Positions 2,693-59,452 of a stretch of DNA of 64,000 nt are shown here, one piece after another (position 1 is the first letter of the stretch; every line of letters begins with the position of its first letter). The notes under the pieces were generated by a model. That model worked only from the letters and a program-made list of their open reading frames with translations. It did not search any database and was not told where the DNA came from. Source of the stretch: Alphaproteobacteria bacterium (GTDB lineage Bacteria; Pseudomonadota; Alphaproteobacteria; Rs-D84); assembly GCA_017630405.1 (NCBI GenBank), contig JAGBVH010000007.1, forward strand, positions 6,506-70,505, given 5' to 3'. The position numbers and the translations under genes were made by a program.

Positions 2693-5110
2693 GTGAAATT
2701 GAAACATCGCATTATTGATTTTCGTTTGTTAACAGCACTTTTTGCTACGCTGATGGCTTCGTCAGCAGTGGTTGCAGACCAGATGCCTAATCCACGCGGT
2801 GGCACAAATACTGTGGCGCGCGGCAATGCTTCAAGCGAGAAAGAACGCGTTGTGTCACGTGTTGCGGATAACACTGTCCATCGTGTGTCGAATGATGCGA
2901 CTGCCCGTGTGGCAAAAACTGTAAAACCTTCTACGACACGTTCGGTTAAGCGTCAAATGACAGCTATATCTAATCGACCAGATGTTGTGACCGCTCGCGT
3001 TGGATCAATAGGTGTGGTGCGCAGTGCGAATCCTGTCCGTAGCACAACAAGTAATGTGGCGCGCAGCGCAACGAATGTTTCTAATGTGTCGCGTGCGGCA
3101 ACTTCACGCGCGACTGCTGTGTTTAGTGATATTTCAAAAATTGGTGGCGGGTACGCAACATGTCGTGATGCCTATGCTACCTGTATGGACCAATTCTGCG
3201 CAAATGCAAATGATACTTATCGCCGTTGCTATTGCAGTCAAAAGTTCACAGAATTTCGTGATACAGAATTGGTATTGGATGAAGCCAAGAGATTGCTTTT
3301 ACAATTCCAAGATAATAATTTGAACGCTGTTGACAAGACCGCGGCCGAGGTTAATGCAATGTATACAGCAACCGTTGGCGAAGCGGCAATTAAAACTGAT
3401 GTTAGTGGCGCACAGTCTGTATTAAATGAAATTGGCGATTTGCTGTCGGGTAAAAAGGCTGTGTCCAAAGAAACATCGGCATCTGCGTTGGGATTGTTGG
3501 ATGTTGATTTTGGTATGGATATGGAAGATATCTGGTCTGGGGGCTCATCGTCTTCATCGATATTTGGTGGTAATGCTACAACTAATATGGCGGATCTTGA
3601 AGGCGCGGCACTGTACAAGGCTGTAAACACTCAATGTCTTGAGGTTGTGGCATCTGCTTGTGAAAACGATGCCGTGTTAAGTATGGCGACCAATTCATAT
3701 AATATTATGATTACACAGGATTGTAATGCCTATGAAAAGAAGGTGAATACTCAGCGCAAGGCCGTTGAAGATTCTGTGCGTCAGGCAGAAAAATATTTGC
3801 GCGAAGCACGTTTGGACGAATATCGCACACATAACAGTGCCGATGTTAATGAATGTGTGGCCAAGGTTCGTAACGCAATTACACAAGATACAGCATGTGG
3901 CACAAACTATGCACGCTGTTTGGATTATTCAGGTGTTTATATAAACTCTACAACTGGTGAACCTATTTATAGCCCTCGCCTGTTTAAATTGGTTGAGTTG
4001 ATTAAACTGGATGGTTCGGCAGATGTTATGGGCCAGAACGCAGACTTTAATAAATTCTTGGATTCTAAACGCATGTTTGCGACAACAGCATTGGATACTT
4101 GTCGTGATCAGGCAGATATTGTTTGGAACGAATTTAAGCGTAGCGCATTGATTGAAATTGCGCAGGCACAAGATGAAAAAATTGAACAAGTAAAAAATAC
4201 CTGTGTGTCAACAATGGCTGAATGCTATGATACGCAATCTGGTGCTTTAAAGGACTTTAGTGACCAAACAGCGGTTGCGGCTGGTGCTGTATCTGCGTAT
4301 GCAGCACGCCAAATGTGCGCTGACAAGGTTTTGACCTGTGCTGCATTGTATGGCGATACTTCAAATTGCAGATTTGATAATAATGGCAAGTTTACAGGCA
4401 ATCAGGGGTCCTGTGGATTAACAGCGTTGTTGAACTTTGTTGATACAGTTGACACAATCAAGATTAATGACAGTTGTGTTGCTGCGTTACAAGAAAACGC
4501 AAATGAAATATGTACCCCAACATCGGGGGATGGCGTTTATCCTTCGGCGTGCTTTAATAAGTCACAAACGGATATTGAAGGAATGGTAACCAATCGTGCC
4601 GAGCTTGTATGTAATATAGCGGATTTTGGGATTTTGGGTAAAGATATGGAGGCAACTATTAGCAGCACCAAAGACGCGATTGTTCAAAACATTAAGGACG
4701 ATATCGAATCCGCATTGATGGCTGAGTGCGAGGCGCAAAATGGTATTTGGTTCAGCCGCGATGTGGTTGGCGGTGAATCAGAAGAAATTGGCCTGTCGAT
4801 TTTGGAGCCAGAGGCATTGTTCTATACCAAACTGTTTGGTGGCTCGGTGCCAAGTAAGTTTACCGCCAATTCATCTGATGTAAAGCAAGCTTATGGTATC
4901 TGTGCGGAAAATTCAATGCGCTATGCGTGTATGAATCAGGATACAATGACCGGTGGTCATGGATATGCTAAATACGATGCCGCAACAAATAGTTGTGTGT
5001 TCACCAGCGAGTGGTACAAATGGCAGTGTGAAAATGTATTGAACGGCTATTTCGAAAATGAAGTATGTTATTGGAACGCAGAAAATGTTGTCGATGGGGG
5101 TAATGAATAA
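2693..5110 (+). CDS. Large secreted cysteine-rich protein, family member A (805 aa), with an Arg/Ser/Thr-rich N-terminal tract
   Basis: GTG start with RBS aagagagag. Signal peptide LLTALFATLMASSAVVA. Low-complexity tract (VARSATNVSNVSRAATSRATAV). Many Cys residues in conserved motifs are shared with the 34473-36947 product. Confidence 0.8.
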   Translation: MKLKHRIIDFRLLTALFATLMASSAVVADQMPNPRGGTNTVARGNASSEKERVVSRVADNTVHRVSNDATARVAKTVKPSTTRSVKRQMTAISNRPDVVTARVGSIGVVRSANPVRSTTSNVARSATNVSNVSRAATSRATAVFSDISKIGGGYATCRDAYATCMDQFCANANDTYRRCYCSQKFTEFRDTELVLDEAKRLLLQFQDNNLNAVDKTAAEVNAMYTATVGEAAIKTDVSGAQSVLNEIGDLLSGKKAVSKETSASALGLLDVDFGMDMEDIWSGGSSSSSIFGGNATTNMADLEGAALYKAVNTQCLEVVASACENDAVLSMATNSYNIMITQDCNAYEKKVNTQRKAVEDSVRQAEKYLREARLDEYRTHNSADVNECVAKVRNAITQDTACGTNYARCLDYSGVYINSTTGEPIYSPRLFKLVELIKLDGSADVMGQNADFNKFLDSKRMFATTALDTCRDQADIVWNEFKRSALIEIAQAQDEKIEQVKNTCVSTMAECYDTQSGALKDFSDQTAVAAGAVSAYAARQMCADKVLTCAALYGDTSNCRFDNNGKFTGNQGSCGLTALLNFVDTVDTIKINDSCVAALQENANEICTPTSGDGVYPSACFNKSQTDIEGMVTNRAELVCNIADFGILGKDMEATISSTKDAIVQNIKDDIESALMAECEAQNGIWFSRDVVGGESEEIGLSILEPEALFYTKLFGGSVPSKFTANSSDVKQAYGICAENSMRYACMNQDTMTGGHGYAKYDAATNSCVFTSEWYKWQCENVLNGYFENEVCYWNAENVVDGGNE

Positions 5111-5112
5111 AA

Positions 5113-6396
5113 ATGTTGAATATTAATAAAATATTTTTATCAGTTTTTGTAATTGCTTCCTTGGGCGTTGCAGGTTCCGCAGATGCCACATGGCCATCGT
5201 CAGTTAAACAAGAAACATGTTTTGCTCATAGCGGTATTTCAGCGATGACAACGCCGACGGGCATGACTTTTGCGCTTGATAGTGATGCTGGCGATCAACT
5301 TGGTATAAATTTTTATCTGGCCCGTGAGCGCTCTGATAATGGGGCCAAGTTTTGCCCTACTCATGTGATGGCTTGGCGTAAAAATTTAAATGGAAGCAAC
5401 AGTCATCCAAGCCTAGAAAAGTGGAATTATTCCCAATGGGGTGAAGATGAATGTTTTTGGGTTTGTCACGAAGGTTATTTTGGGGAAAAATGTAAGGACT
5501 CGAGTACCAACAATACACCCAAAAGTTGTGCAACTAACACGATTGAACTTGTAAGTGGCGAAAATTTAAATAAGGTTGGAAACGATTCAAAATATACCGC
5601 TGTTAGTGATGGTGTTTGGACCAGAACTTGGGATGAAAATTGTAAAAAAACAGACAAGGCCGCACACAAGGAAGCAAAACATGCTGAAACTTGGGCGGTT
5701 AAGCGAGTGACTAAGGATGGCTTTGGCGTGGTCGTACAGAGTCTGCAGTTCTGGGCATATTGTAAACAAAGCACCAAACAGGAAAAGTGCCGTATCAGGG
5801 TACGGCCTGTTGGCGAAGAAATGGTTATGTGTCAAAATGGGTATACGGTCACAACTGACAAGCAGTCGTGTAAGCCTATTGATGTGCGCGCATGTGGACA
5901 GGCGGTAGTTTGTGATGGATGGGATATTTTTGATGATGCGGACCCACAATATAAACGATATCTGGTGGATGGGGACGATTGCTATAAATATCGTTGTGCG
6001 GAATCGGGTTATGGTTTTGCTGGGACTGCTGTTTTGTCATTGGCAGAGAACCGTAAATGTATCGAATGTCCGACTACATATAAGCAAGGCATTTCCGCAG
6101 ATGGCGTTTGTGAAGTTGCAGAGGCTGGCGAGATTTTCTCGAACGGTGAAGTTGGTACAGCGACTGCAACCAATTCGTCTGAAATGTTACAGTGTTGGAA
6201 TGCTGATGATTTTAAGGCCTGTTTGATAACAGGTGCAACGGATACAACATCAACAACAACCGTTGAAAAAGGTTCTGTGGTTAGCCCAATCATAGCCACT
6301 CCTGTTTTAGGGGGTGCGGGATTGCCTAAAAAGGATATCTTGCTTGATTCTGGGAAACAGATTATCAAGGAACCTATTAATAAGATAACGCTGTGA
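5113..6396 (+). CDS. Secreted cysteine-rich protein (427 aa) with EGF-like Cys spacing and a Thr-rich C-terminal tract
   Basis: ATG lies 2 nt after the preceding stop. Signal peptide FLSVFVIASLGVAGSADA. Motif CFWVCHEGYFGEKC. Tract TDTTSTTTV near the C-terminus. Confidence 0.75.
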   Translation: MLNINKIFLSVFVIASLGVAGSADATWPSSVKQETCFAHSGISAMTTPTGMTFALDSDAGDQLGINFYLARERSDNGAKFCPTHVMAWRKNLNGSNSHPSLEKWNYSQWGEDECFWVCHEGYFGEKCKDSSTNNTPKSCATNTIELVSGENLNKVGNDSKYTAVSDGVWTRTWDENCKKTDKAAHKEAKHAETWAVKRVTKDGFGVVVQSLQFWAYCKQSTKQEKCRIRVRPVGEEMVMCQNGYTVTTDKQSCKPIDVRACGQAVVCDGWDIFDDADPQYKRYLVDGDDCYKYRCAESGYGFAGTAVLSLAENRKCIECPTTYKQGISADGVCEVAEAGEIFSNGEVGTATATNSSEMLQCWNADDFKACLITGATDTTSTTTVEKGSVVSPIIATPVLGGAGLPKKDILLDSGKQIIKEPINKITL

Positions 6397-6403
6397 TTAT
6401 ATT

Positions 6404-6425
6404 GGGCGCCAAGTGCGCCCTTTTT
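6404..6425 (+). terminator. Intrinsic terminator after the Cys-rich operon
   Basis: Stem gggcgc (6404-6409) pairs with gcgccc (6415-6420), followed by TTTTT. Confidence 0.7.
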
Positions 6426-6509
6426 ATTGCGTGATTTTCTTAAACTTTCGTTTTTGTTTAGTTTTAATTAATTCATTAGAGTTTATTTAAGAAAATGTGT
6501 CTATTGCCA

Positions 6510-6537
6510 CTTGAAAACATTTTTTGCATAACTATAT
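6510..6537 (+). promoter_or_regulatory. RpoH (sigma32)-type heat-shock promoter of dnaK
   Basis: CTTG (6510-6513), a 17 nt spacer, then aCTATAT (6531-6537). This fits the alphaproteobacterial CTTG-N17-CYTATNT consensus with one mismatch. Confidence 0.55.
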
Positions 6538-6570
6538 GGTGGGTAAGCAAAATTTTTAAGGAGTAAAAAT

Positions 6571-8469
6571 ATGGGAAAAGTATTAGGTATTGACTTAGGT
6601 ACAACTAATTCCGCTATGGCTTTTATGGATGGCGGCGATCCAAAAATTATTGAAAATTCAGAAGGTCAGCGCACTACCCCTTCGGTCGTTGCTTTGACAA
6701 GTGGTGGTGAACAGTTGGTGGGTATTACTGCCAAGAATCAGGCTGTTACAAATCCAGAAAATACAATTTATGAAATCAAACGCTTGATGGGATTGCGCTT
6801 TGACAGCCCCGCGGTTAAAGAAATCGCAGCACGCGTGCCATATAAAATCGTTGCAGGCGAAAATGGCGATGCTTGGGTTGAAATGGACGGCAAGAAATAT
6901 GCGCCTTCTCAGATTTCAGCTATGATTTTGGCTAAATTGAAAAAAGATGCCGAATCCTATTTGGGTGAAACCGTGACCGATGCAGTTATTACAGTACCGG
7001 CATACTTTAATGATTCCCAGCGTCAGGCAACAAAAGACGCAGGTCGTATTGCGGGATTGAATGTTTTGCGTATTGTTAATGAACCAACAGCCGCAGCATT
7101 GGCATACGGCTTGGATAAAGGCAAAGACGGCGTTATCGCGGTTTATGACCTTGGTGGTGGTACATTTGACGTGTCTATCTTGGAAATTGTTGATGGCGTG
7201 TTCGAAGTAAAATCTACAAACGGTGATACAGCATTGGGTGGTTCGGACTTTGATGCACGTATCTTGGAACACCTGATTGCCGAATTCAAGGCCCAGACAG
7301 GTATCGATTTGTCCGGTGACAAGTTGGCGTTGCAGCGTTTGAAAGAAGCGGCAGAAAAGGCAAAAATCGAATTGTCTTCCAAGACAACAACCGATATCAA
7401 CCTGCCTTTCTTGACAGCAGATGCCACAGGTCCAAAGCACTTTAATACAACATTGACACGCGCAAAGTTGGAATCTTTGGTTGCGGACTTGATTGAACGC
7501 ACAATCGAACCTTGCAAAAAAGCATTGAAAGATGCTGGTCTGGATAAATCACAGATTAACGAAGTTATCTTGGTTGGTGGTCAGACACGTATGCCAAAGG
7601 TTGCAGAAACAGTTAAAGAATTCTTTGGTCGCGAACCGCACAAGGGCGTAAACCCAGACGAAGTTGTTGGTATGGGTGCCGCAATTCAGGGTGGTGTTCT
7701 GAAAGGCGAAGTCAAAGATGTTTTGTTGTTGGATGTGACACCTTTGTCTTTGGGTATTGAAACATTGGGTGGTGTATTTACGCGCCTGATTGACCGCAAT
7801 ACAACAATTCCTACCAAGAAGTCACAAGTATTTAGTACTGCAGAAGACAATCAGTCTGCTGTGACTATCCGTGTATTCCAAGGCGAACGCGATATGGCAG
7901 CTGATAACAAACTGTTGGGTCAGTTTAATCTGGAAGGTATTGCGCCTGCCCCACGTGGCATGCCACAGATTGAAGTGTCTTTTGATATTGATGCGAACGG
8001 TATTGTACATGTATCTGCCAAGGATAAAGGTACGGGCAAAGAACAGGCGATTTCTATTAAATCCGATGGCGGGTTGTCAGAAGATGAAATCAAACGCATG
8101 GTTGATGAAGCGGCTGAAAATGCTGAAGCAGACAAGAAAAAGCGCGCGTTGGCAGAAGCCAAGAATACAGCCGAAACTGCTATCTTTAGCATTGAAAAGT
8201 CACTGAAGGAACATGGTGATAAAATCAGCGAAGATGAAAAGAAAGCAATTGAAGCTGCGAAACAGGAACTGGCCGACGAATTGGCCAAGGCTGATGCGAC
8301 CGCTGAATCTTTGAAGGAAAAGACAGATGCGTTAAGCGAAAAAGCCATGAAGTTGGGTGAAGCCGTCTATAAAGCGGCACAGGCCGAACAGCAGGCAAAC
8401 GCAGGTGCCGGCGAAGAAAAGAAAAACGAAGACGGCACAGTCGATGCAGACTTTTCTGAAAAGAAATAA
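6571..8469 (+). CDS. dnaK: Molecular chaperone DnaK (Hsp70)
   Basis: [28 protein letters not shown] and a full-length Hsp70 body. RBS aaggag. Confidence 0.98.
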
Positions 8470-51660: not shown

Positions 51661-51689
51661 TTGCAATTTCCAGTCTAAAAGAGTATAAT
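51661..51689 (+). promoter_or_regulatory. Consensus sigma70 promoter of ssrA
   Basis: TTGCAA (51661-51666), a 17 nt spacer, then TATAAT (51684-51689). Confidence 0.7.
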
Positions 51690-51695
51690 TGATGG

Positions 51696-52037
51696 GCCAC
51701 GCGAGTGGTGATGATTCTGAAGCCTTTGTGCAATAGTCATTTTGGACTGGGGGGCGGTACCCCACAGCTCCACCATTATTTGATATGATTTTTGGTCGTA
51801 TTTGATTATGGGGCTGACATAGATTCGACAGATGATGAAAGACAAAATGGTTGAATCCGACATGGTGTCGTTAAAAACCAACTAAAAACTGAATGGCGAT
51901 AGAATCGCTGCGAACGACAATGTTCGCCTTGCAATGGCTGCCTAATATGGCGTTGAATACGGTTGGCGATTGTTAGCCGTGTTCGTTTAAGCAATTGCGG
52001 GGTTTGCCGGTACCTGGCACCAGAAATCCGGCGTTTT
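51696..52037 (+). ncRNA. ssrA: Circularly permuted (two-piece) tmRNA gene: acceptor piece to 51775 (..CAGCTCCACCA), spacer, then coding piece from 51810 (GGGGCTGA..)
   Basis: The 3' acceptor strand cagctcc-a-cca (51765-51775) lies upstream of the 5' strand ggggctg (51810-51816). Together they form a 7 bp acceptor with G3-U70. agattcgac D-analogue. Tag ORF GCG AAC GAC AAT GTT CGC CTT GCA ATG GCT GCC TAA (51910-51945) encodes ANDNVRLAMAA. Terminator hairpin at 52006-52037. Confidence 0.85.
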
Positions 52038-52289: not shown

Positions 52290-52297
52290 AAAAATCA

Positions 52298-52322
52298 ATC
52301 CCCCAAATTGGGGGATTTTTTT
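52298..52322 (+). terminator. Intrinsic terminator
   Basis: Stem atccccc, loop aaatt, stem gggggat, followed by TTTTTT. Confidence 0.8.
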
Positions 52323-52382
52323 CAAGACATAGGTTTTCATAGTTCTTGAAAATTATATTATTTATATTATATTTACTGGGCT

Positions 52383-54143
52383 ATGAAACAATATATTTTA
52401 CCACTTCGCGATTTAGTCGTACATCCGTCACTGACAGTGCCGGTGTATATTGATAATCCTGTATCTGTCGCCTGTATCGAGGCTGCCATGAACGCGGACC
52501 GCCGTGTGGTGCTGGTTCCACAGCACAGTTGGGCGTATCCTGCGACCGTTGAAGACATATACTACATTGGAACAATTGGCGATATTGTTCAGGTTCTGCG
52601 TATGCCTGATGGGGCCGTACATGCGATTGTAAAAACGACTGGCGTTGTGGCACTTAATGACACGACTGTTCAAAACGGAATCTTTACCGCAGATATCAAC
52701 CCGATTGAAATCGCAGACGACATGGAAAGCGAGACAACCATTGCTTTGCGCGATAAAATCGCAGACTGCCTGCAGACAATTGCTGCTAGTATTCGCAAGT
52801 TCAAAATGGAAAAACTGCGTAATGTTATCCAGAACTATCCCCTGCCCGCGTTTGTGGATTCTGTAGTTGAAATGGCCGACATCGACACAGACAATGCACT
52901 TAAGATTTTGTGTGCCCCTTCGTGGCAGGACAAAATGATTCTGTTGCTGGAACAGGTAAAATTACTTAGCGAAACATTTAAAATCGAAGATTCTATTAAC
53001 CGCCGTATTCATCAGCAAATGGAAAACGGCCGGCGCGAGGCTATATTACAAGAAAAAATGCGCGCCATCCAAAAGGAAATGGGCGAAGATTCTGAAGAAA
53101 TGGATTCGGAAAATATGCGAAAAAAGATTCAGAAGTCCGCTATGCCAACCGAGGCTAAAGAAAAAGCAATGAGCGAGTGGAAGCGTATGCGCTCTATGTC
53201 ACCTATGTCCAACGAAGGTGGATTGCTTAAAACATATTTGGACGAATTGCTGTCTATGCCTTGGGACAAATCTGATAATACGCCGATTGATTTGAATAAT
53301 GCGCGTGAAATTTTGGATTCCCAACATTCTGGGATGCGTGGGGTCAAAGAACGCATACTGGAACATATTGCGGTGATGAAAAAGACTGGCGGCAATCAGG
53401 GCACTATTCTGTGCTTTGTTGGTGCGCCAGGTGTTGGGAAAACATCGCTGGGTAAATCAATCGCTGCGGCATTGGGCCGAAAATATCAACGCATTTCATT
53501 GGGTGGCATATCAGACGAGGCGCACTTCCGCGGCCATCGCAAAACATATATCGGCGCACAAACTGGGCGTATTATGGATGCGCTTAAACGCTGTAAGTCA
53601 AACAATCCCGTCATTGTTCTTGATGAAATTGATAAAATGGGACGTGATTGGCGCGGAGACCCTGAATCTGCGCTGTTGGAAATTTTGGATCCAGAACAGA
53701 ACAAGACTTTCCGCGATCATTATCTGGAAGTGGATTTTGACCTGTCCAAGGTTATGTTTATCGCGACCGCAAACAGCCTTAACCTGTCTAACGCTTTAAA
53801 AGACCGTATGGAAATTATCGAAATTCCTGGTTATTCTATGGACGACAAAGTTCAAATTGCACGCGAACATTTGATTGGACGCGCAGCACGCGACACGGGC
53901 TGGAATACTGACGACATTATTATTTCCGATGATGCGTTGCGACACATTATTCAAAAATATACCTCGGAACAAGGTGTGCGCGAAGTTCAGCGCGAACTGA
54001 CTGCTATTTTGCGCCGCGCTTTGTTGGAAAATAACTGCGTGGACACAAAAACAGAATTTACAAATGAAAAAATTGACCAGTTGTTGTCTGTGCGTCAATC
54101 TGCTGGATTTTCCAAAAAAATAGGATTTGGGGTGCACGCATAA
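52383..54143 (+). CDS. lon: Lon N-terminal plus AAA+ domains without the proteolytic domain (586 aa)
   Basis: ILPLRDLVVHPSLTVPVYI (Lon N-domain), GAPGVGKTS (Walker A), VIVLDEIDKM (Walker B) and EQGVREVQRE (sensor 2). The ORF stops at ..SKKIGFGVHA, where the Ser-Lys protease domain would begin. Confidence 0.85.
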   Translation: MKQYILPLRDLVVHPSLTVPVYIDNPVSVACIEAAMNADRRVVLVPQHSWAYPATVEDIYYIGTIGDIVQVLRMPDGAVHAIVKTTGVVALNDTTVQNGIFTADINPIEIADDMESETTIALRDKIADCLQTIAASIRKFKMEKLRNVIQNYPLPAFVDSVVEMADIDTDNALKILCAPSWQDKMILLLEQVKLLSETFKIEDSINRRIHQQMENGRREAILQEKMRAIQKEMGEDSEEMDSENMRKKIQKSAMPTEAKEKAMSEWKRMRSMSPMSNEGGLLKTYLDELLSMPWDKSDNTPIDLNNAREILDSQHSGMRGVKERILEHIAVMKKTGGNQGTILCFVGAPGVGKTSLGKSIAAALGRKYQRISLGGISDEAHFRGHRKTYIGAQTGRIMDALKRCKSNNPVIVLDEIDKMGRDWRGDPESALLEILDPEQNKTFRDHYLEVDFDLSKVMFIATANSLNLSNALKDRMEIIEIPGYSMDDKVQIAREHLIGRAARDTGWNTDDIIISDDALRHIIQKYTSEQGVREVQRELTAILRRALLENNCVDTKTEFTNEKIDQLLSVRQSAGFSKKIGFGVHA

Positions 54144-54520
54144 TGGTAAAAACAAAAAACTTTGTTTTGAACGGTAAAAATGTTGCGATTCCAAACGACA
54201 AGAAATTGTTGGAACAAATCGAACGATTCCAAAAGATTGAACAATATGCGCGCGCACAGGAAAAACTGACCATAAAAACAGCCGAACAACAATCAAGAAA
54301 CCATCCAGATAAACGCGATTTTATTATCCAAGCAGATACTGACAAATATCAAATAACTGCTATTAACTCTGCGGTTCCAACTTCACTGTTGCTGCTGCGC
54401 GGGGATTCTTGGGATACTATGATACAGGACAAAGCTGATAATTCTGTTGTGATAGAAGATGGTGCAGTTGCTGGATTGTACTTTGAACTGTTGAATCAAT
54501 TAAAGGAAATACATAAATGA
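54143..54520 (+). CDS. Hypothetical protein (125 aa) occupying the position of the missing Lon protease domain
   Basis: TAATG overlap with the lon stop and ATGA overlap with tsaB. No similarity to the Lon protease domain. Confidence 0.5.
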   Translation: MVKTKNFVLNGKNVAIPNDKKLLEQIERFQKIEQYARAQEKLTIKTAEQQSRNHPDKRDFIIQADTDKYQITAINSAVPTSLLLLRGDSWDTMIQDKADNSVVIEDGAVAGLYFELLNQLKEIHK

Positions 54521-55056
54521 TTCTGATTATCAATACTTCGGGCGGGAATTTGGAATTTGTATTGGATGGACAATACAAATCTGTTGCTGTGGAAAAACAG
54601 TCTGTTGCCCTGCCTGCAGAATGTGAAAAGTTTATTACCGAGTGCGGCACAAAATGGTCCGACATTGATGCAATTGGTGTGGTTGTAGGACCAGGTAGTT
54701 TTACTGGCATTCGCCTTGGCATCGCATATGCCAAAGGAATTGCAATGGGGCTGAATATACCTGTGGTTGGAATTAGTTTGTTTGATTTATATTTGGCCGC
54801 CACACCAGATGCTTTTGTTGCGATTGATTCTGGTCGCGGCGATTTCTTTGTAGCCGCAAATGGATTAGCACCACAAACAATGGAAATAGAAGAATTAGAG
54901 ACAAAACAAATGGAATGGCCACGCACCGTTGGGCACAGACCTTTTGATTTGAGGCTGGGGGTAAATATCGTAAAAGAAAAAATAGCATCTGGGGATTTGG
55001 CGCCTGTTGTGCCAATGTATTTACGCCCCAGTTATGCCGAGCAAAACAAAAAATAA
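54517..55056 (+). CDS. tsaB: tRNA threonylcarbamoyladenosine biosynthesis protein TsaB
   Basis: ILIINTSGG...IDAIGVVVGPGSFTGIRLGIAYAKGIAMGLNIPVVGIS. Confidence 0.85.
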   Translation: MILIINTSGGNLEFVLDGQYKSVAVEKQSVALPAECEKFITECGTKWSDIDAIGVVVGPGSFTGIRLGIAYAKGIAMGLNIPVVGISLFDLYLAATPDAFVAIDSGRGDFFVAANGLAPQTMEIEELETKQMEWPRTVGHRPFDLRLGVNIVKEKIASGDLAPVVPMYLRPSYAEQNKK

Positions 55057-55068
55057 AGAGAAAATAAT

Positions 55069-55440
55069 ATGACTAAAGAATTTTATACAAAACACAAAGA
55101 TGAGATTGAAAAAGCCATTAAAAACGCGACTGTGTCATATAATATGAATTCCAGTAAAAATGGAAAAGTTGCTGTACATGTTTATGACATCGCAACCAAG
55201 AAAGTTTGTATTTCTGTGTTAGCGGTTAAAAATCGTGAAAACCACATAACATCTAAATATATTCTTAAAATCACCGTTGCCCATGACACAAAGGCAAAAA
55301 AAGAATTCGCAATCACCAAAGATACCGGACATTACGCATGCAGGTTGTTTAATACTTTATCAGCAAAACATGACGCGCAAATCGCAAAAACACAGCTGAA
55401 AAAGAACTTTGACAATCAAGCATTTAAAATGAAACGCTAA
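55069..55440 (+). CDS. Small protein, array member 0 (123 aa; divergent relative of the next three ORFs)
   Basis: RBS aagagaaaa. Similar size to the next three ORFs. The C-terminal pattern GHYACRLFNTLSAKHD parallels DTDFAYRVYEKMMREHE. Confidence 0.5.
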   Translation: MTKEFYTKHKDEIEKAIKNATVSYNMNSSKNGKVAVHVYDIATKKVCISVLAVKNRENHITSKYILKITVAHDTKAKKEFAITKDTGHYACRLFNTLSAKHDAQIAKTQLKKNFDNQAFKMKR

Positions 55441-55462
55441 CTTGTGAGCAAGAGGTTTGATA

Positions 55463-55864
55463 ATGGCAAATATTTTTCAGAAGATTTTTTTGCCGGAATA
55501 TAAATGGCGAGCATTGGATGCGATATCGCACCATACAATCACACATGTGTTTACGCGCTGGACCAAGCCAGGCAAAAACGGGACAGAAGATTATAAATGT
55601 TCCAAAAGAAGTTTCTTGATTAATGCGAGGGATATATCGATTATCTCGTCCCAGCATTATGACGAACAACTGGCGCGTCCTGATAACCCATATGTACCAA
55701 TTGAAAGTCCAGTACATGTGTCACTGGATGTCGCTGCAAATTGTGATGGCGCGCAACAGGAGCTGCATGAATATGACACTGATTTTGCGTACCGCGTTTA
55801 CGAAAAAATGATGCGTGAACACGAAAAAAGAAACGAACAAAACAACACAACAAAGGTCAGATAA
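55463..55864 (+). CDS. Small protein, array member 1 (133 aa, starts MANIFQKIF)
   Basis: ATG 55463 has RBS agagg. MANIFQKIFLPEYKWRALD...DTDFAYRVYEKMMREHEK. Confidence 0.6.
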   Translation: MANIFQKIFLPEYKWRALDAISHHTITHVFTRWTKPGKNGTEDYKCSKRSFLINARDISIISSQHYDEQLARPDNPYVPIESPVHVSLDVAANCDGAQQELHEYDTDFAYRVYEKMMREHEKRNEQNNTTKVR

Positions 55865-55865
55865 T

Positions 55866-56240
55866 ATGGCAAATTTTTTTCAGAAGTTTTTCAGACCGGA
55901 ATATCAATGGCAACTGATGGACCTGGTCAAGGAATGCGATATAAAAGAAGAATTTTGTAGTTTTGATACAGACCACATCACCCCATGCGGTCATCCAGTG
56001 TTCGGCAAGGGTTCAACGTGGAAGTACAGTCTGCACACCGAAGACACATATATGGTCGCGACACGCTTTTGCGACACAGCCCTCAGTCGCCCTATATCCG
56101 TTAGTTTGTATGTACATCGCAAACGCAAAAATGGGGACAAGCGCAATTCTGAGCACAGAGAAAAAGATACCGAGTTCGCGTATAAAATGTATGCACTGAT
56201 GCGCGACAAATACATCACAGAACGCGAATTTACATGGTAA
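55866..56240 (+). CDS. Small protein, array member 2 (124 aa, starts MANFFQKFF)
   Basis: ATG lies 1 nt after the previous stop. MANFFQKFFRPEYQWQLMD...DTEFAYKMYALMRDKY. Confidence 0.6.
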   Translation: MANFFQKFFRPEYQWQLMDLVKECDIKEEFCSFDTDHITPCGHPVFGKGSTWKYSLHTEDTYMVATRFCDTALSRPISVSLYVHRKRKNGDKRNSEHREKDTEFAYKMYALMRDKYITEREFTW

Positions 56241-56252
56241 AGGAACAATAGC

Positions 56253-56606
56253 ATGGCTAATATCTTTCAAAAGATTTTTTACAAAGATTATCAATGTCAG
56301 ATTATCGATATGATACGCGACTATGATGTGCACTACAGATATGACGAATGGATAAAACTTGGTGCAAAGGGTGACACTAAATGTTCTGAACGCGCATACT
56401 CTATTCGCGATAAAAAATTCTTTATCATCGTGACATGCAGATACGATGAAACTGCGTTACCCAAAACTTCGTATCGTCTGTACATGGAAGACTATAGACC
56501 GAATACACTTATCCCGGCGCAGGCAACACAGCAAAACACTAAATTTGCTGAAGCAATCTATAACAAAATGTTAGATAAATACGCAGCAACACACAATGTT
56601 AGATGA
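56253..56606 (+). CDS. Small protein, array member 3 (117 aa, starts MANIFQKIF)
   Basis: RBS aaaggaac. MANIFQKIFYKDYQCQIID...NTKFAEAIYNKMLDKY. Overlaps the rimI start by 11 nt. Confidence 0.6.
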   Translation: MANIFQKIFYKDYQCQIIDMIRDYDVHYRYDEWIKLGAKGDTKCSERAYSIRDKKFFIIVTCRYDETALPKTSYRLYMEDYRPNTLIPAQATQQNTKFAEAIYNKMLDKYAATHNVR

Positions 56607-56982
56607 ACTGGCAAATCTTCATAAATTATGCTTTCCGCATAAACCGTGGGGTGCGGATGATTTTGCCGACCTGAAAAAATCAGGTTGCGAAATTATCGCA
56701 AGCCAAAACGGTTTTATAGTATATCGCGCAACACTGGACGAAGCAGAAATTATCACAATTGGCGTACATCCCGATGCGCGCCGCACTGGCATTGCTGCTG
56801 CCATGTTGGGGATTGCAGAGGCAGACTTGAAAAAACAAGGTATAAAACATATATTTCTAGAGGTGGCGGCGGATAACGCCCCTGCCCGCGCGCTGTATGA
56901 ACAGAATGGGTTTGTTCAAATCGGTGTGCGCCCAAAATACTATGACGGCACTGATGCCATAATGATGCGAAAGGATATATAA
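56596..56982 (+). CDS. rimI: Ribosomal-protein-alanine N-acetyltransferase (GNAT)
   Basis: IITIGVHPDARRTGIAAAMLGIAE...IFLEVAADNAPARALYEQNGF. Usual partner of tsaB. Confidence 0.8.
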   Translation: MLDELANLHKLCFPHKPWGADDFADLKKSGCEIIASQNGFIVYRATLDEAEIITIGVHPDARRTGIAAAMLGIAEADLKKQGIKHIFLEVAADNAPARALYEQNGFVQIGVRPKYYDGTDAIMMRKDI

Positions 56983-58050
56983 ATGTCTGAATACAAGGTC
57001 AGTAATGCATATGTCTTGAAATCCGTGCCAAAGTCGGATGATGCACCATATGGTGTGATTCCGGCCGATACGATTGATACTAACCGCCCAACAATAATCG
57101 CGCTTAGTGGTGAACTGACCGATAATCCACGCTTTGCAAATCATTATATCAAGCAATTGAAACAAGTTCTGGCGAATGGCGGTGTTGATAATGCGACAAT
57201 ATATTCCGTATATTATGACTTTGGTTCACGCGACACAACCAGCGAACGCGTACAGTTATTTCAACGCGCATGTCACAGAATCCGCAACATGAGTCAGGAT
57301 ATCAACACAATAAACGCCAAAATCAAGATGATGGACGAAAATGAACCCAGTCCGAAATACATTGAACGACTTTACAACATATTGCTGGCACCGATACTTG
57401 CGACCGATGATTCGGGTATGCGACCAGATATCAACACCGTTGCACAGCGCGCATCATACATTCGTTTCTATGCACATTCGCACGGGGCGGCGGTGGCAAC
57501 TATGCTGGGCAAGATTATGGCGCAAAAAATGTCCAAAATGGGATATAAGATAAGCGAAATTCGCGATGCACAGAAAAACATTATTGTTATTCAGCATGGT
57601 CCTATTACACCACTGGAAAGACCTAACTTTACAACTCTTTCTTTTGCATCTGCTTCGGACACCAAAGCGAACCTGCACAACAGGCTGTACGAATACGCAT
57701 TTGATAATTCATTTGATTTATATCCTTCATATTTTGGTCGTGCGGGTGCACATGTATTTACCGCTGGCACATTAAGCACTTCTTTGACCAAGGAACATGA
57801 TAATGATGGTCTGTTGAACAACGATATACTTACCGAAGATGGGCGCATTATCTTTGCCACCCAGCGCAACGCGATTATAAATTCAATTCAATATGCTGGC
57901 CAGCCAGTTCCACCTATTCGTGAACTGGTATCTGGCGAAGGTGTTGATTTCGATGAAATGGCAACCAATGGCGCGTGGTTCTGCAAACTAATGATGAGCG
58001 AAATCAAAAATCAGATTCCACAAATTCCAGCACACGATTATCAAATATAA
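56983..58050 (+). CDS. Putative alpha/beta-hydrolase-like protein (355 aa) with a GxSxG-like elbow
   Basis: IRFYAHSHGAAVATML (A-H-S-H-G nucleophile-elbow-like). No signal peptide. Starts immediately after the rimI stop. Confidence 0.5.
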   Translation: MSEYKVSNAYVLKSVPKSDDAPYGVIPADTIDTNRPTIIALSGELTDNPRFANHYIKQLKQVLANGGVDNATIYSVYYDFGSRDTTSERVQLFQRACHRIRNMSQDINTINAKIKMMDENEPSPKYIERLYNILLAPILATDDSGMRPDINTVAQRASYIRFYAHSHGAAVATMLGKIMAQKMSKMGYKISEIRDAQKNIIVIQHGPITPLERPNFTTLSFASASDTKANLHNRLYEYAFDNSFDLYPSYFGRAGAHVFTAGTLSTSLTKEHDNDGLLNNDILTEDGRIIFATQRNAIINSIQYAGQPVPPIRELVSGEGVDFDEMATNGAWFCKLMMSEIKNQIPQIPAHDYQI

Positions 58051-59278
58051 CATCGCGCGAACGCAGTGGTGATTCCAAGTGCATATCCGCAGCATGGCGG
58101 GTGCGCGACAGTGCGACATAAGTTTGTCCATGCGCAAATGCACCACGAGATATATCAACCACAACCGCATCAAGTGTCTTGCCCTGCGCCTTGTGTATCG
58201 TCATGGCATATCCAAGGTTTAGTGGGAACTGTTTATAGGACCCTACTTCGTTTTCAACCAACCTGTCGTTTTCATCACGACTGTATTCTATCTTTTCCCA
58301 CTTGTCTGGTTTTACAGCAACCAAATCGCGCGAGTCTGATAATAACTGCACAATTATTTCACGCGCGCCAAGACTTCTGACTATTCCCATAGAGCCGTTA
58401 TGCCATTTATCCGAATTTTTAACAAATACGACCAATGCGCCGACCTTTAATGTCAGATTTAATGGTGCAGGCACATCGCGTTCAGCAAAAGTGCCAGACA
58501 AGATACCATTATAAGAAACTTCGGGTTCTGGTATTTGTGCCAAACGGTCTGCATTTATACGCTCGGCCACAGCACGAAACGGCGTGATAATAACCGCATT
58601 GGAACGACGCTCGGTATTATCTATACGACAAGAGTTAAAAAATTCCAACGCCCCAGTATCATTATTACGCAACCGCACCAGATTTTCCAACAGTGGCATA
58701 TCGTGTTGACGATACACTAAATCAAAGTTGTACTTTATAAAGTTGGCGCGCTTGTAAACATTACTATCAAAGAAGTACGCATTTGGATGACCATATTCCG
58801 ATGTATAGTATTGGGTTGCTTCGCGCGTGATAACAGGTGGCAATTGAAACAAGTCGCCAATGGCAACAACCTGAATTCCACCAAATGGTTCATTGTTACG
58901 ACGAGCATAGCGCGCCAAAATATCAATCGCATCCAATAAATCAGGCGCAACCATTGATATTTCATCAATTACCAGAATATCTGTGGCCGTTAAAATATTT
59001 CTTGGCTTTGCCTTTAGTTTCAATAATTCCGGCAGAATAAAATCACGAGGCTGGATTTGAAACAAAGAATGAATAGTTTGGCCGCCAACATTAAGAGCCG
59101 AAACCGCGGTTGGGCACGCACAAACCACGCGCTTTTTGGTTGCAGACTTAAGATAATTTACAAAAGTTGATTTGCCAGTACCCGCAGGCCCCAGAATAAG
59201 TATGTTCGAATTTGTCCGCTCGATAGCATTAAAGGCGGCCATTTGGGTTTCGTTTAATATTTGAGGTAATACGGTCAT
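58004..59278 (-). CDS. Pif1/RecD-family (AAA_30) DNA helicase
   Basis: ILILGPAGTGKSTFV (Walker A), ILVIDEISMV (Walker B), and HKAQGKTLDAVVVDI...YVALSRTR (UvrD_C_2-like end). Confidence 0.8.
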   Translation of the reverse strand: MTVLPQILNETQMAAFNAIERTNSNILILGPAGTGKSTFVNYLKSATKKRVVCACPTAVSALNVGGQTIHSLFQIQPRDFILPELLKLKAKPRNILTATDILVIDEISMVAPDLLDAIDILARYARRNNEPFGGIQVVAIGDLFQLPPVITREATQYYTSEYGHPNAYFFDSNVYKRANFIKYNFDLVYRQHDMPLLENLVRLRNNDTGALEFFNSCRIDNTERRSNAVIITPFRAVAERINADRLAQIPEPEVSYNGILSGTFAERDVPAPLNLTLKVGALVVFVKNSDKWHNGSMGIVRSLGAREIIVQLLSDSRDLVAVKPDKWEKIEYSRDENDRLVENEVGSYKQFPLNLGYAMTIHKAQGKTLDAVVVDISRGAFAHGQTYVALSRTRHAADMHLESPLRSRDVIFDNRVLEFVESDF

Positions 59279-59444: not shown

Positions 59445-59452
59445 AAGTTTAA

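Follow-up and report, generated by a model that had tools for sequence, protein, structure and literature searches.

The genes tsaB and rimI usually lie next to each other or overlap, but in a 64-kb stretch of DNA from an alphaproteobacterium of the order Rs-D84 (contig JAGBVH010000007.1, 64,000 nucleotides; hereafter the window) they are held 1.5 kb apart by four small open reading frames (ORFs). What these ORFs encode, and what place they have in a conserved operon, is the question raised by this locus. The original prediction had described them as tandem paralogues of no recognised family and had offered two explanations: an immunity or anti-defence gene cassette, perhaps connected with a hydrolase-like gene behind rimI, or a lineage-specific accessory of N6-threonylcarbamoyladenosine (t6A) synthesis or of ribosome modification. 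The ORFs, designated M0 to M3, and their junction with rimI are located in the window as follows (aa, amino acids; pI, isoelectric point):

55069..55440, + strand: M0, 123 aa, a divergent cassette of the M0 subfamily; basic, pI 9.9
55463..55864, + strand: M1, 133 aa counted from the MAN start, an M-clade cassette of the 133-aa type
55866..56240, + strand: M2, 124 aa, an M-clade cassette of the 124-aa type; C-terminus EREFTW
56253..56606, + strand: M3, 117 aa, an M-clade cassette of the 113-117-aa type; C-terminus HNVR
56596..56606, + strand: overlap of the M3 stop with the rimI start, 11 nt, AATGTTAGATGA, indicating translational coupling

These four same-strand ORFs occupy the whole tsaB-rimI interval. 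Their sizes, the distances between the genes (12 nt from tsaB to M0, then 22, 1 and 12 nt from M0 to M1, M1 to M2 and M2 to M3) and the 11-nt overlap with rimI agree with the ORF list, as had been described. The names of the two flanking genes hold as well, both products having passed the cutoffs of the respective NCBIfam models (TIGR03725 and TIGR01575). Each of the four ORFs is preceded by its own ribosome-binding site of the AAAGG/AGGA type, located 6-10 nt upstream. None contains a transmembrane-like segment, as originally noted: the Kyte-Doolittle mean over 19 residues peaks at 1.28 or less in all of them. Cassettes of the M3 type (pI of M3, 8.9) are always the final gene ahead of rimI.

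Both the protein family and the organisation of the locus are new. M1, M2 and M3 share 27-31% pairwise identity (BLASTP E-values of 1e-13 to 1e-15) and have common N- and C-terminal motifs, which confirms their earlier interpretation as tandem paralogues. M0 displayed no similarity to them in BLAST. However, hhalign, applied to the family alignments of M and M0, revealed a relationship with 97.1% probability (E 7e-11, 109 columns), and M0 can indeed be regarded as the more divergent relative that it was taken for. Two further groups are part of this picture, namely C3, a subfamily found between tsaB and rimI in related species, and U, which is represented in the window by a 125-aa ORF on the other side of tsaB. 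The hhalign probabilities for the other subfamily pairs were 92% (M and C3), 88% (M0 and C3), and 79% (U and M, over 101 columns); judging from the profile alignment, U is probably a distant member of the M/M0 superfamily. An origin by duplication of neighbouring genes was ruled out by the same method, since every comparison of M, M0, U, and C3 with tsaB, rimI, lon, and the hydrolase-like gene gave 0.7% or less (0.2% or less for tsaB alone). The AlphaFold2 models of M3 (predicted local distance difference test score, pLDDT, 86; predicted template modelling score, pTM, 0.77) and M0 (pLDDT 80, pTM 0.68) are both confident despite shallow alignments, and both have the same order of elements: a helix, five strands, and a helix. 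Given the hhalign values, set against those for the neighbouring genes, and the common predicted topology of M3 and M0, all four proteins are assigned to one orphan superfamily of soluble proteins of approximately 100-140 aa, with a predicted fold of helix 1, a five-stranded antiparallel sheet, and helix 2.

The genes were also compared with the orthologous four-gene array of a related species (locus L009). The ratios of nonsynonymous to synonymous substitution rates (dN/dS) were 0.18 for M0, 0.21 for M1, 0.38 for M2, and 0.08 for M3, next to 0.07 for both tsaB and rimI and 0.12 for U. Together with the individual ribosome-binding sites and the confident models, these values indicate that M0-M3 are translated, selected proteins. 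All four are real, expressed-looking genes under purifying selection. The original prediction had named untranslated ORFs as a possibility to be checked; the range of dN/dS values (0.08-0.38) and the conservation of the ribosome-binding sites speak for coding.

The survey for known families was negative, in line with the initial statement that none could be recognised. Profile searches with M0-M3 against Pfam, NCBIfam, PHROGs, PADLOC, and sequences of the Protein Data Bank (PDB) returned nothing significant. When 36 M and M0 members and 22 U members were scanned against Pfam, only scattered sub-threshold matches and no described immunity family were found. In PADLOC, zero matches were obtained for M1-M3 and U, and M0 had one sub-threshold match to E2 (E 0.017, 13 bits); the matches to PHROGs were weak (E of 0.01 or higher). 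No similarity to TsaE, TsaC, or the KEOPS small subunits was detected in Pfam or NCBIfam, and no Pfam match to the SspB, HspQ, or LarA adaptor families. Foldseek searches of the PDB with the M3 and M0 models gave no convincing neighbour (best E-values 0.02-0.08, template modelling (TM) scores of 0.45 or less), and the top match of M3 in the BFVD collection was an unnamed viral protein (TM-score 0.47). A word-indexed search of 5.8 billion proteins recovered 26 M-type and 15 M0-type clusters, none of which is named or carries a Pfam domain. In an exhaustive HMMER search of 1.84 billion representatives, the combined profile had 69 matches at E of 1e-3 or below; 68 of them are small proteins of 49-141 aa, and the remaining one, a protein of 5,096 aa, is a probable false positive. 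Relatives came only from Candidatus Enterousia and related gut Alphaproteobacteria in the contexts examined, so that the assumption of a lineage-specific array is supported.

Signs of mobile or defence elements were equally absent from the regions inspected. The window DNA had no match in the phage collection, and a repeat search at the locus detected neither attC-like or long inverted repeats nor an integrase. A 17-nt repeat (15 of 17 positions identical) does connect positions 56563-56579 within M3 (KMLDKY) with positions 56591-56607 at the rimI start (MLDE); it was treated as coincidence because, by a rough estimate, about five such 15/17 matches are expected in the 3.2 kb searched. No toxin domain was present within approximately 5-8 kb in the window or in the species loci L001, L004, L005, and L088. 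Tests of membership in known groups that could be run were thus negative for homology to immunity, defence, t6A, and Lon-adaptor proteins, for toxin adjacency, and for universal occurrence with tsaB, and the family is accordingly filed under no known one. Two traits of known groups were found, namely a variable tandem array with rapid turnover and a small N-terminal residue as in RimI substrates.

The distribution of these genes was determined in related loci recovered via TsaB, all of which belong to Candidatus Enterousia or to metagenome-assembled genomes of gut Alphaproteobacteria from ruminants, mice, and humans. The backbone is constant across the loci: a gene for a protease-less LonA-type AAA+ protein is followed by tsaB and then by rimI. 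Of 77 non-redundant species loci, 29 have tsaB and rimI directly adjoining or overlapping, in agreement with the adjacency regarded as usual in the original prediction, and 48 have small genes inserted between the two. The lon-tsaB junction is empty (4-nt overlap) in about 30 of the 77 species and contains one or two small ORFs in 47. Overall, the number of cassettes ranges from zero to two upstream of tsaB and from zero to five downstream; both junctions are empty in 14 of the 77 species. Close association of the two anchor genes is also known from the literature: their linkage is conserved, and tsaB-rimI fusions occur in Bordetella and Mycobacterium leprae (PMC4926160). A fusion of tsaB and rimI into one ORF was observed here in L052 (positions 6001-6927).

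The genes inserted between tsaB and rimI fall into three subfamilies by hidden Markov models (HMMs), M, M0, and C3, which are distinct in BLAST but related at the profile level. The arrays seen include M0, C3, M, M-M, M0-M0, M0-M, M-M-C3, and M-M-M-M; the order of the window, M0-M-M-M, was found again only in L009. One Logan contig has five cassettes in a row ahead of rimI. In the HMM scan, which covered the 64-kb window and 80 species loci of approximately 12 kb or less each, the family models matched only the two junctions flanking tsaB. A metagenome scan with the M alignment yielded five loci, all consistent with the same operon context, and this context was also seen in L088 and L091. Both junctions of tsaB therefore behave as cassette slots in a conserved operon. 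Of the loci of more distant relatives (L075-L084), six have a filled upstream slot, and four of these six have nothing in the downstream one; from this occupancy, the family may have arisen at the lon-tsaB junction.

Turnover in the slots is fast. Eleven of the 23 species pairs with Lon-like proteins at least 93% identical differ in cassette content. Alignments by blastn revealed flanks that are 89-97% identical around a cassette that is precisely present or absent (L055/L065, L023/L025, and L067/L068) or replaced (L047/L051), with breakpoints at gene boundaries. In every junction read, the gene before rimI, whether tsaB or the last cassette, stops inside the first codons of rimI (AATGTTARATGA), which indicates that translational coupling to rimI is kept; the cassettes also retain their own ribosome-binding sites. 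The array of the window is itself mosaic. Relative to L009, where the M1-M2 block corresponds to positions 3580-4355, synonymous divergence (dS) is 0.37 for M1 and 0.14 for M2, far below the values of 1.0-2.7 calculated for M0, M3, U, tsaB, and rimI. The GC content at third codon positions is 0.41 in M1 and 0.50 in M2 versus 0.33-0.38 in M0, M3, and U. This mosaic of dS values points to recent cassette exchange between lineages, and the M1-M2 block seems from the sequence comparison to have been transferred in this way. The exchange would probably proceed by recombination within the conserved tsaB and rimI genes as homology arms, a mechanism inferred from the pattern.

The main functional clue is the conserved N-terminal peptide of the M clade, which is encoded in the window at the following positions:

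55463..55492, + strand: M1 codons 1-10, peptide MANIFQKIFL
55866..55895, + strand: M2 codons 1-10, peptide MANFFQKFFR
56253..56282, + strand: M3 codons 1-10, peptide MANIFQKIFY

The N- and C-terminal motifs that had been reported as common to M1-M3 were recovered by sequence comparison, and in the M clade as a whole the N-terminal consensus reads (M)A-N-[IF]-[FL]-Q-[KR]-[IL]-F, with Pro or Ser as the usual next residue. Conservation was analysed in 68 M-clade sequences, which had been chosen with a loose pattern on positions 4-5, so that circularity touches only those two positions. Mean entropy rises from 1.11 bits in the first ten residues to about 2.2 bits in the helices and 2.7-3.4 bits in strands and loops. 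The most conserved positions are M1, M106, A2, F98, F9, Y103, A99, N3, Y110, Q6, L76, D19, and K7; Ala2 occurs in 61 of the 68 sequences and is otherwise replaced by Thr or Pro. Beyond residue 10, the top positions are mostly hydrophobic or aromatic and most of them are located in the C-terminal helix; they are probably core residues. In the M3 model, residues 1-10 have a pLDDT of 46, the remainder of the chain 76-95, and the peptide is left unpacked against the domain; the N-terminal linear motif is probably exposed. A DNA-level cause of this conservation was ruled out by synonymous variation in codons 2-9. GC-containing codons such as CTG and TGG replace AT-rich ones with hydrophobicity kept, and the constraint consequently acts on the protein.

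No conserved polar constellation of catalytic type was found across the family. With its mostly hydrophobic and aromatic conserved positions in helices and its variable strands and loops, this makes the cassettes probable non-enzymatic binding modules. Some M-clade subfamilies (P0076, P0085, P0087, P0100, and the gene at positions 1602-2027 of L091) possess, between strands 4 and 5, an insert rich in Cys (for example, CLKHEQCDKECCLKC), and these also bear a C-terminal 'NGCP' motif. With metal binding or disulfides, the insert may elaborate the variable face.

The remaining genes and signals of the operon and its surroundings are the following:

52297..52373, + strand: terminator-like hairpin (52297-52317), then a promoter-like site (52346-52373); the transcription unit probably begins here
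52383..54143, + strand: LonA-type AAA+ protein without a protease domain, 586 aa, first gene of the operon; Pfam LON_substr_bdg, AAA, and Lon_lid only
54143..54520, + strand: U, 125-aa ORF in the lon-tsaB slot, overlapping both neighbours; 102 bits with the U-family HMM, hhalign to M 79%
54517..55056, + strand: tsaB, 179 aa, short form, the anchor between both slots; TIGR03725 87.1 bits versus a cutoff of 69.3
56596..56982, + strand: rimI, 128 aa, the right-hand anchor of the slot; TIGR01575 88.9 bits versus a cutoff of 86.4, GNAT matches in Pfam
56983..58050, + strand: alpha/beta-hydrolase-like protein, 355 aa, a variable gene present in 0-2 copies
58004..59278, - strand: PIF1/RecD-like SF1B helicase, convergent with the operon

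On the + strand, no comparably strong terminator-like site was detected between the promoter-like site and position 59451, and lon, U, tsaB, M0, M1, M2, M3, rimI, and the hydrolase-like gene probably form one transcript, as predicted from these signals. Genomes of Enterousia (order Rs-D84) are mostly smaller than 1 Mb, tightly packed, and devoid of the tricarboxylic acid cycle and respiration (PMC12306168). The Lon-like protein matches positions 2-566 of the 795-position model for endopeptidase La (TIGR00763) with 541 bits versus a cutoff of 608 and ends just ahead of the protease domain; this form of 585-586 aa is kept in all of the more than 80 related loci. The idea that U is a remnant of the lost protease domain was discarded, since none of the 22 U members matched Lon_C and no Lon chain was retrieved in the PDB profile search. 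Some U members open with MNIIKQIKLY..., which is close to the N-terminus of M. TsaB aligns to the TsaB and TsaD models with its N-terminal domain alone; its identity within the clade is 73-89%, and cassette-bearing and cassette-free species do not differ in its length. The helicase gene and the hydrolase-like gene share 47 nt at their 3' ends, and a helicase is usually located at this place in related loci. A transfer-messenger RNA (tmRNA) gene (51682-52036, + strand; annotated by ARAGORN as tmRNA*, which is taken to denote the permuted two-piece form) with the tag peptide AANDNVRLAMAA lies just upstream of the terminator and promoter preceding the Lon-like gene.

The family of the 355-aa protein was examined in the window (56983-58050) and in L010, L016, L020, L043, L044, L058, and L080. 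Weak matches to Obc1_C were obtained for 8 of 20 members (best E-value 7e-6), and the nucleophile elbow coincides with a match to cinnamoyl esterase. The invariant residues are H165, G168, D226, and H272; the elbow-like motif reads H-(S/C)-x-G, the putative nucleophile alternating between Ser and Cys (AHSHG, THCHG, THCQG). Judging from these motifs, the protein looks like a divergent alpha/beta hydrolase. About half of the species lack the gene, whereas several have it in duplicate.

We tentatively favour, as the most plausible reading but one that may well prove wrong, the view that the cassettes are adaptor-like proteins. An N-terminal handle would contact a conserved partner, best sought among the products of the same operon, while the fast-evolving body would bind ligands that change, and cassettes would probably be swapped by recombination with tsaB and rimI serving as homology arms. 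One candidate partner is RimI, an N-terminal alanine acetyltransferase, on which the peptide might dock or by which it might be modified; the other is the substrate-binding N-domain of the protease-less Lon protein. In favour of RimI are the translational coupling between rimI and the last cassette and the loose resemblance of ANIFQK to ARYFRR, the N-terminal peptide of ribosomal protein S18. ARYFRR has been used as a RimI substrate peptide, RimI of Mycobacterium tuberculosis acetylates N-terminal peptides of the products of neighbouring genes in vitro, and a weak TsaB-RimI interaction is cited alongside the tsaB-rimI fusions (PMC4926160). The S18 gene, rpsR, was found neither in the window nor in the species loci, and the comparison of N-termini uses the Salmonella peptide from the literature. 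The more specific version, that adaptors acetylated by RimI as S18 mimics and/or docked on Lon are swapped as cassettes and re-target a conserved machine to changing ligands, is rather improbable.

Several observations weigh against the adaptor reading. M0, C3, and U share the slots without possessing the MAN motif, so that the idea of a handle covers the M clade only, and in 14 of the 77 species neither junction holds a cassette. Between loci of near-identical background, one subfamily can be exchanged for an unrelated one, a turnover not obviously expected of a dedicated regulator of Lon, TsaB, or RimI. The likeness to ARYFRR is a loose one, comprising A1, F4, and a basic sixth residue, and the amphipathicity of the N-peptide is not above that of shuffled sequences. 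Finally, local tandem duplication and recombination in the flanks could by themselves, without any function, produce the linkage.

The turnover just mentioned fits stand-alone conflict proteins, such as orphan immunity proteins, antitoxin-like proteins, or anti-phage binders, directed against variable toxins or phage proteins from outside. A housekeeping operon with constitutive expression would then serve them only as a parking place, and their function would be independent of Lon, TsaB, and RimI. Tandem small non-enzymatic paralogues in copy numbers from zero to at least five, very fast gain, loss, and replacement between close species, recombination between lineages, an evolution much faster than that of the neighbours (M0 is 49% identical to its L009 orthologue where tsaB is 88% identical), and the variable loops and Cys-rich inserts of some subfamilies are all features of this kind. 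However, toxin, secretion-system, and phage genes were absent from the flanks that were examined, and neither the immunity families of Pfam nor PADLOC gave a match; immunity proteins do not typically bear a strongly conserved linear motif at the N-terminus, and the family is confined to one operon in the window and the 80 species loci. We consider this explanation unlikely, though it deserves serious attention. For the anti-defence cassette of the original prediction, PADLOC, PHROGs, and the context, which lacks mobile elements, offered no support. The narrower proposal of immunity proteins specific to the 355-aa protein draws on the hydrolase-like appearance of the latter and on its similarly variable copy number. 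It did not survive the comparison of distributions, which are near independent: the hydrolase-like gene is present at 24 of 48 loci with an occupied tsaB-rimI slot and at 9-10 of 29 with an empty one. L088 has two cassettes and no such gene, several other loci show the reverse, and rimI always lies in between. This proposal is highly improbable, and the originally suggested link to the downstream hydrolase is abandoned.

A role as lineage-specific accessory subunits in t6A synthesis, either as partners of TsaB and TsaD or as recruiters of tRNA that offset the short TsaB of 179 aa, would account for an exclusive linkage to both sides of tsaB with stop/start overlaps, for the restriction of the TsaB match to the N-terminal domain, and for the basic character of some members (M0 and M3). 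TsaB, however, is equally short in species that have no cassette, and the missing homology to TsaE, TsaC, and the KEOPS small subunits adds to the doubt. The absence of the family from 14 of 77 tsaB-bearing species, together with the free variation of subfamily and of copy number (0-5), argues against a core t6A subunit, and a role of this kind is quite improbable. The N-peptide invites another comparison, since the N-termini of MinE and MreB are amphipathic membrane-targeting helices. Its hydrophobic residues are spaced at i, i+1, i+4, and i+5 (I4, F5, I8, and F9) and accompanied by K7 and R/K10 and then by a Pro/Ser breaker, and its hydrophobic moment (0.47-0.75) is within the range computed for the N-termini of these two proteins. 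The cassettes could then be peripheral membrane proteins or effectors, an interpretation that we regard as improbable: the moment is not significantly above that of shuffled sequences, and the near-invariant Ala2, Asn3, and Gln6 exceed what a membrane helix needs. That the ORFs are functionless hitch-hikers or annotation artefacts in an intergenic expansion is hardly credible. Known domains are lacking, many species dispense with the genes, and GC content is low in M0, M3, and U, but dN/dS is well below 1 for all four, the AlphaFold2 models are confident despite shallow alignments, orthologous subfamilies with conserved ribosome-binding sites are kept in many species, and the genomes are of less than 1 Mb and tightly packed (PMC12306168).

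Comparison with known systems brings out partial likenesses. Like accessory-gene hotspots and orphan immunity arrays, the locus offers a fixed site between conserved genes at which zero to five small paralogues are swapped with a mosaic of dS values. It differs from them in that the slot is set within a housekeeping operon, precisely at stop/start junctions and with coupling preserved, that it has no toxin, secretion, or mobile-element genes nearby, and that its cargo is a single orphan superfamily. Adaptors of AAA+ proteins, such as SspB for ClpX and HspQ and LarA for Lon, combine a binding body with a short docking peptide. The cassettes resemble them in being small and non-enzymatic, with a conserved terminal peptide (modelled at low confidence) and a variable folded body, and the same operon encodes a Lon-type AAA+ protein in which the substrate-binding N-domain is retained. 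The differences are that the cassettes resemble SspB, HspQ, and LarA families in Pfam neither in sequence nor in fold, that the Lon protein has no protease domain, and that M0, C3, and U lack the peptide.

Reported RimI substrates comprise the S18 N-terminus ARYFRR, EF-Tu, and products of neighbouring genes in M. tuberculosis (PMC4926160, PMC9079301). The M-clade cassettes are similar in that Ala follows Met removal (in 61 of 68 sequences), in the pattern A-x-hydrophobic-hydrophobic-x-basic, and in the location of their genes directly upstream of rimI and coupled to it. The motif likeness is loose, however; C3 opens with MQ..., parts of U also have no small residue, and other slot subfamilies start with MT.. 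or MQ... At the level of fold, the CapZ subunit core, extended dsRBD-like proteins, and StARkin/START-like proteins recur as weak Foldseek matches and have the same order of helix, antiparallel sheet, and helix, a common layout that alone explains the matches. With TM-scores of 0.2-0.45 and E-values of at least 0.02, no homology or function is implied by these matches.

If correct, these results add a new protein family without a recognisable structural neighbour. They would also reveal an unusual organisation of accessory genes, with exchangeable cassettes at the exact stop/start junctions of an operon of essential genes in a strongly reduced genome. The significance of the linkage of rimI to tsaB and other t6A genes has been termed 'not understood' (PMC4926160); the cassettes would provide a concrete handle on this persistent association, and the idea that RimI modifies its operon neighbours becomes directly testable. 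The conserved protease-less LonA deserves to be noted as well. Should the cassettes turn out to be generic immunity-like proteins, their value would be more modest: a new orphan family that could serve to mark conflict at the strain level in a gut lineage without cultured members. The system is confined to this one uncultured lineage, where its link to rimI and to a protease-less Lon is odd and can be tested.

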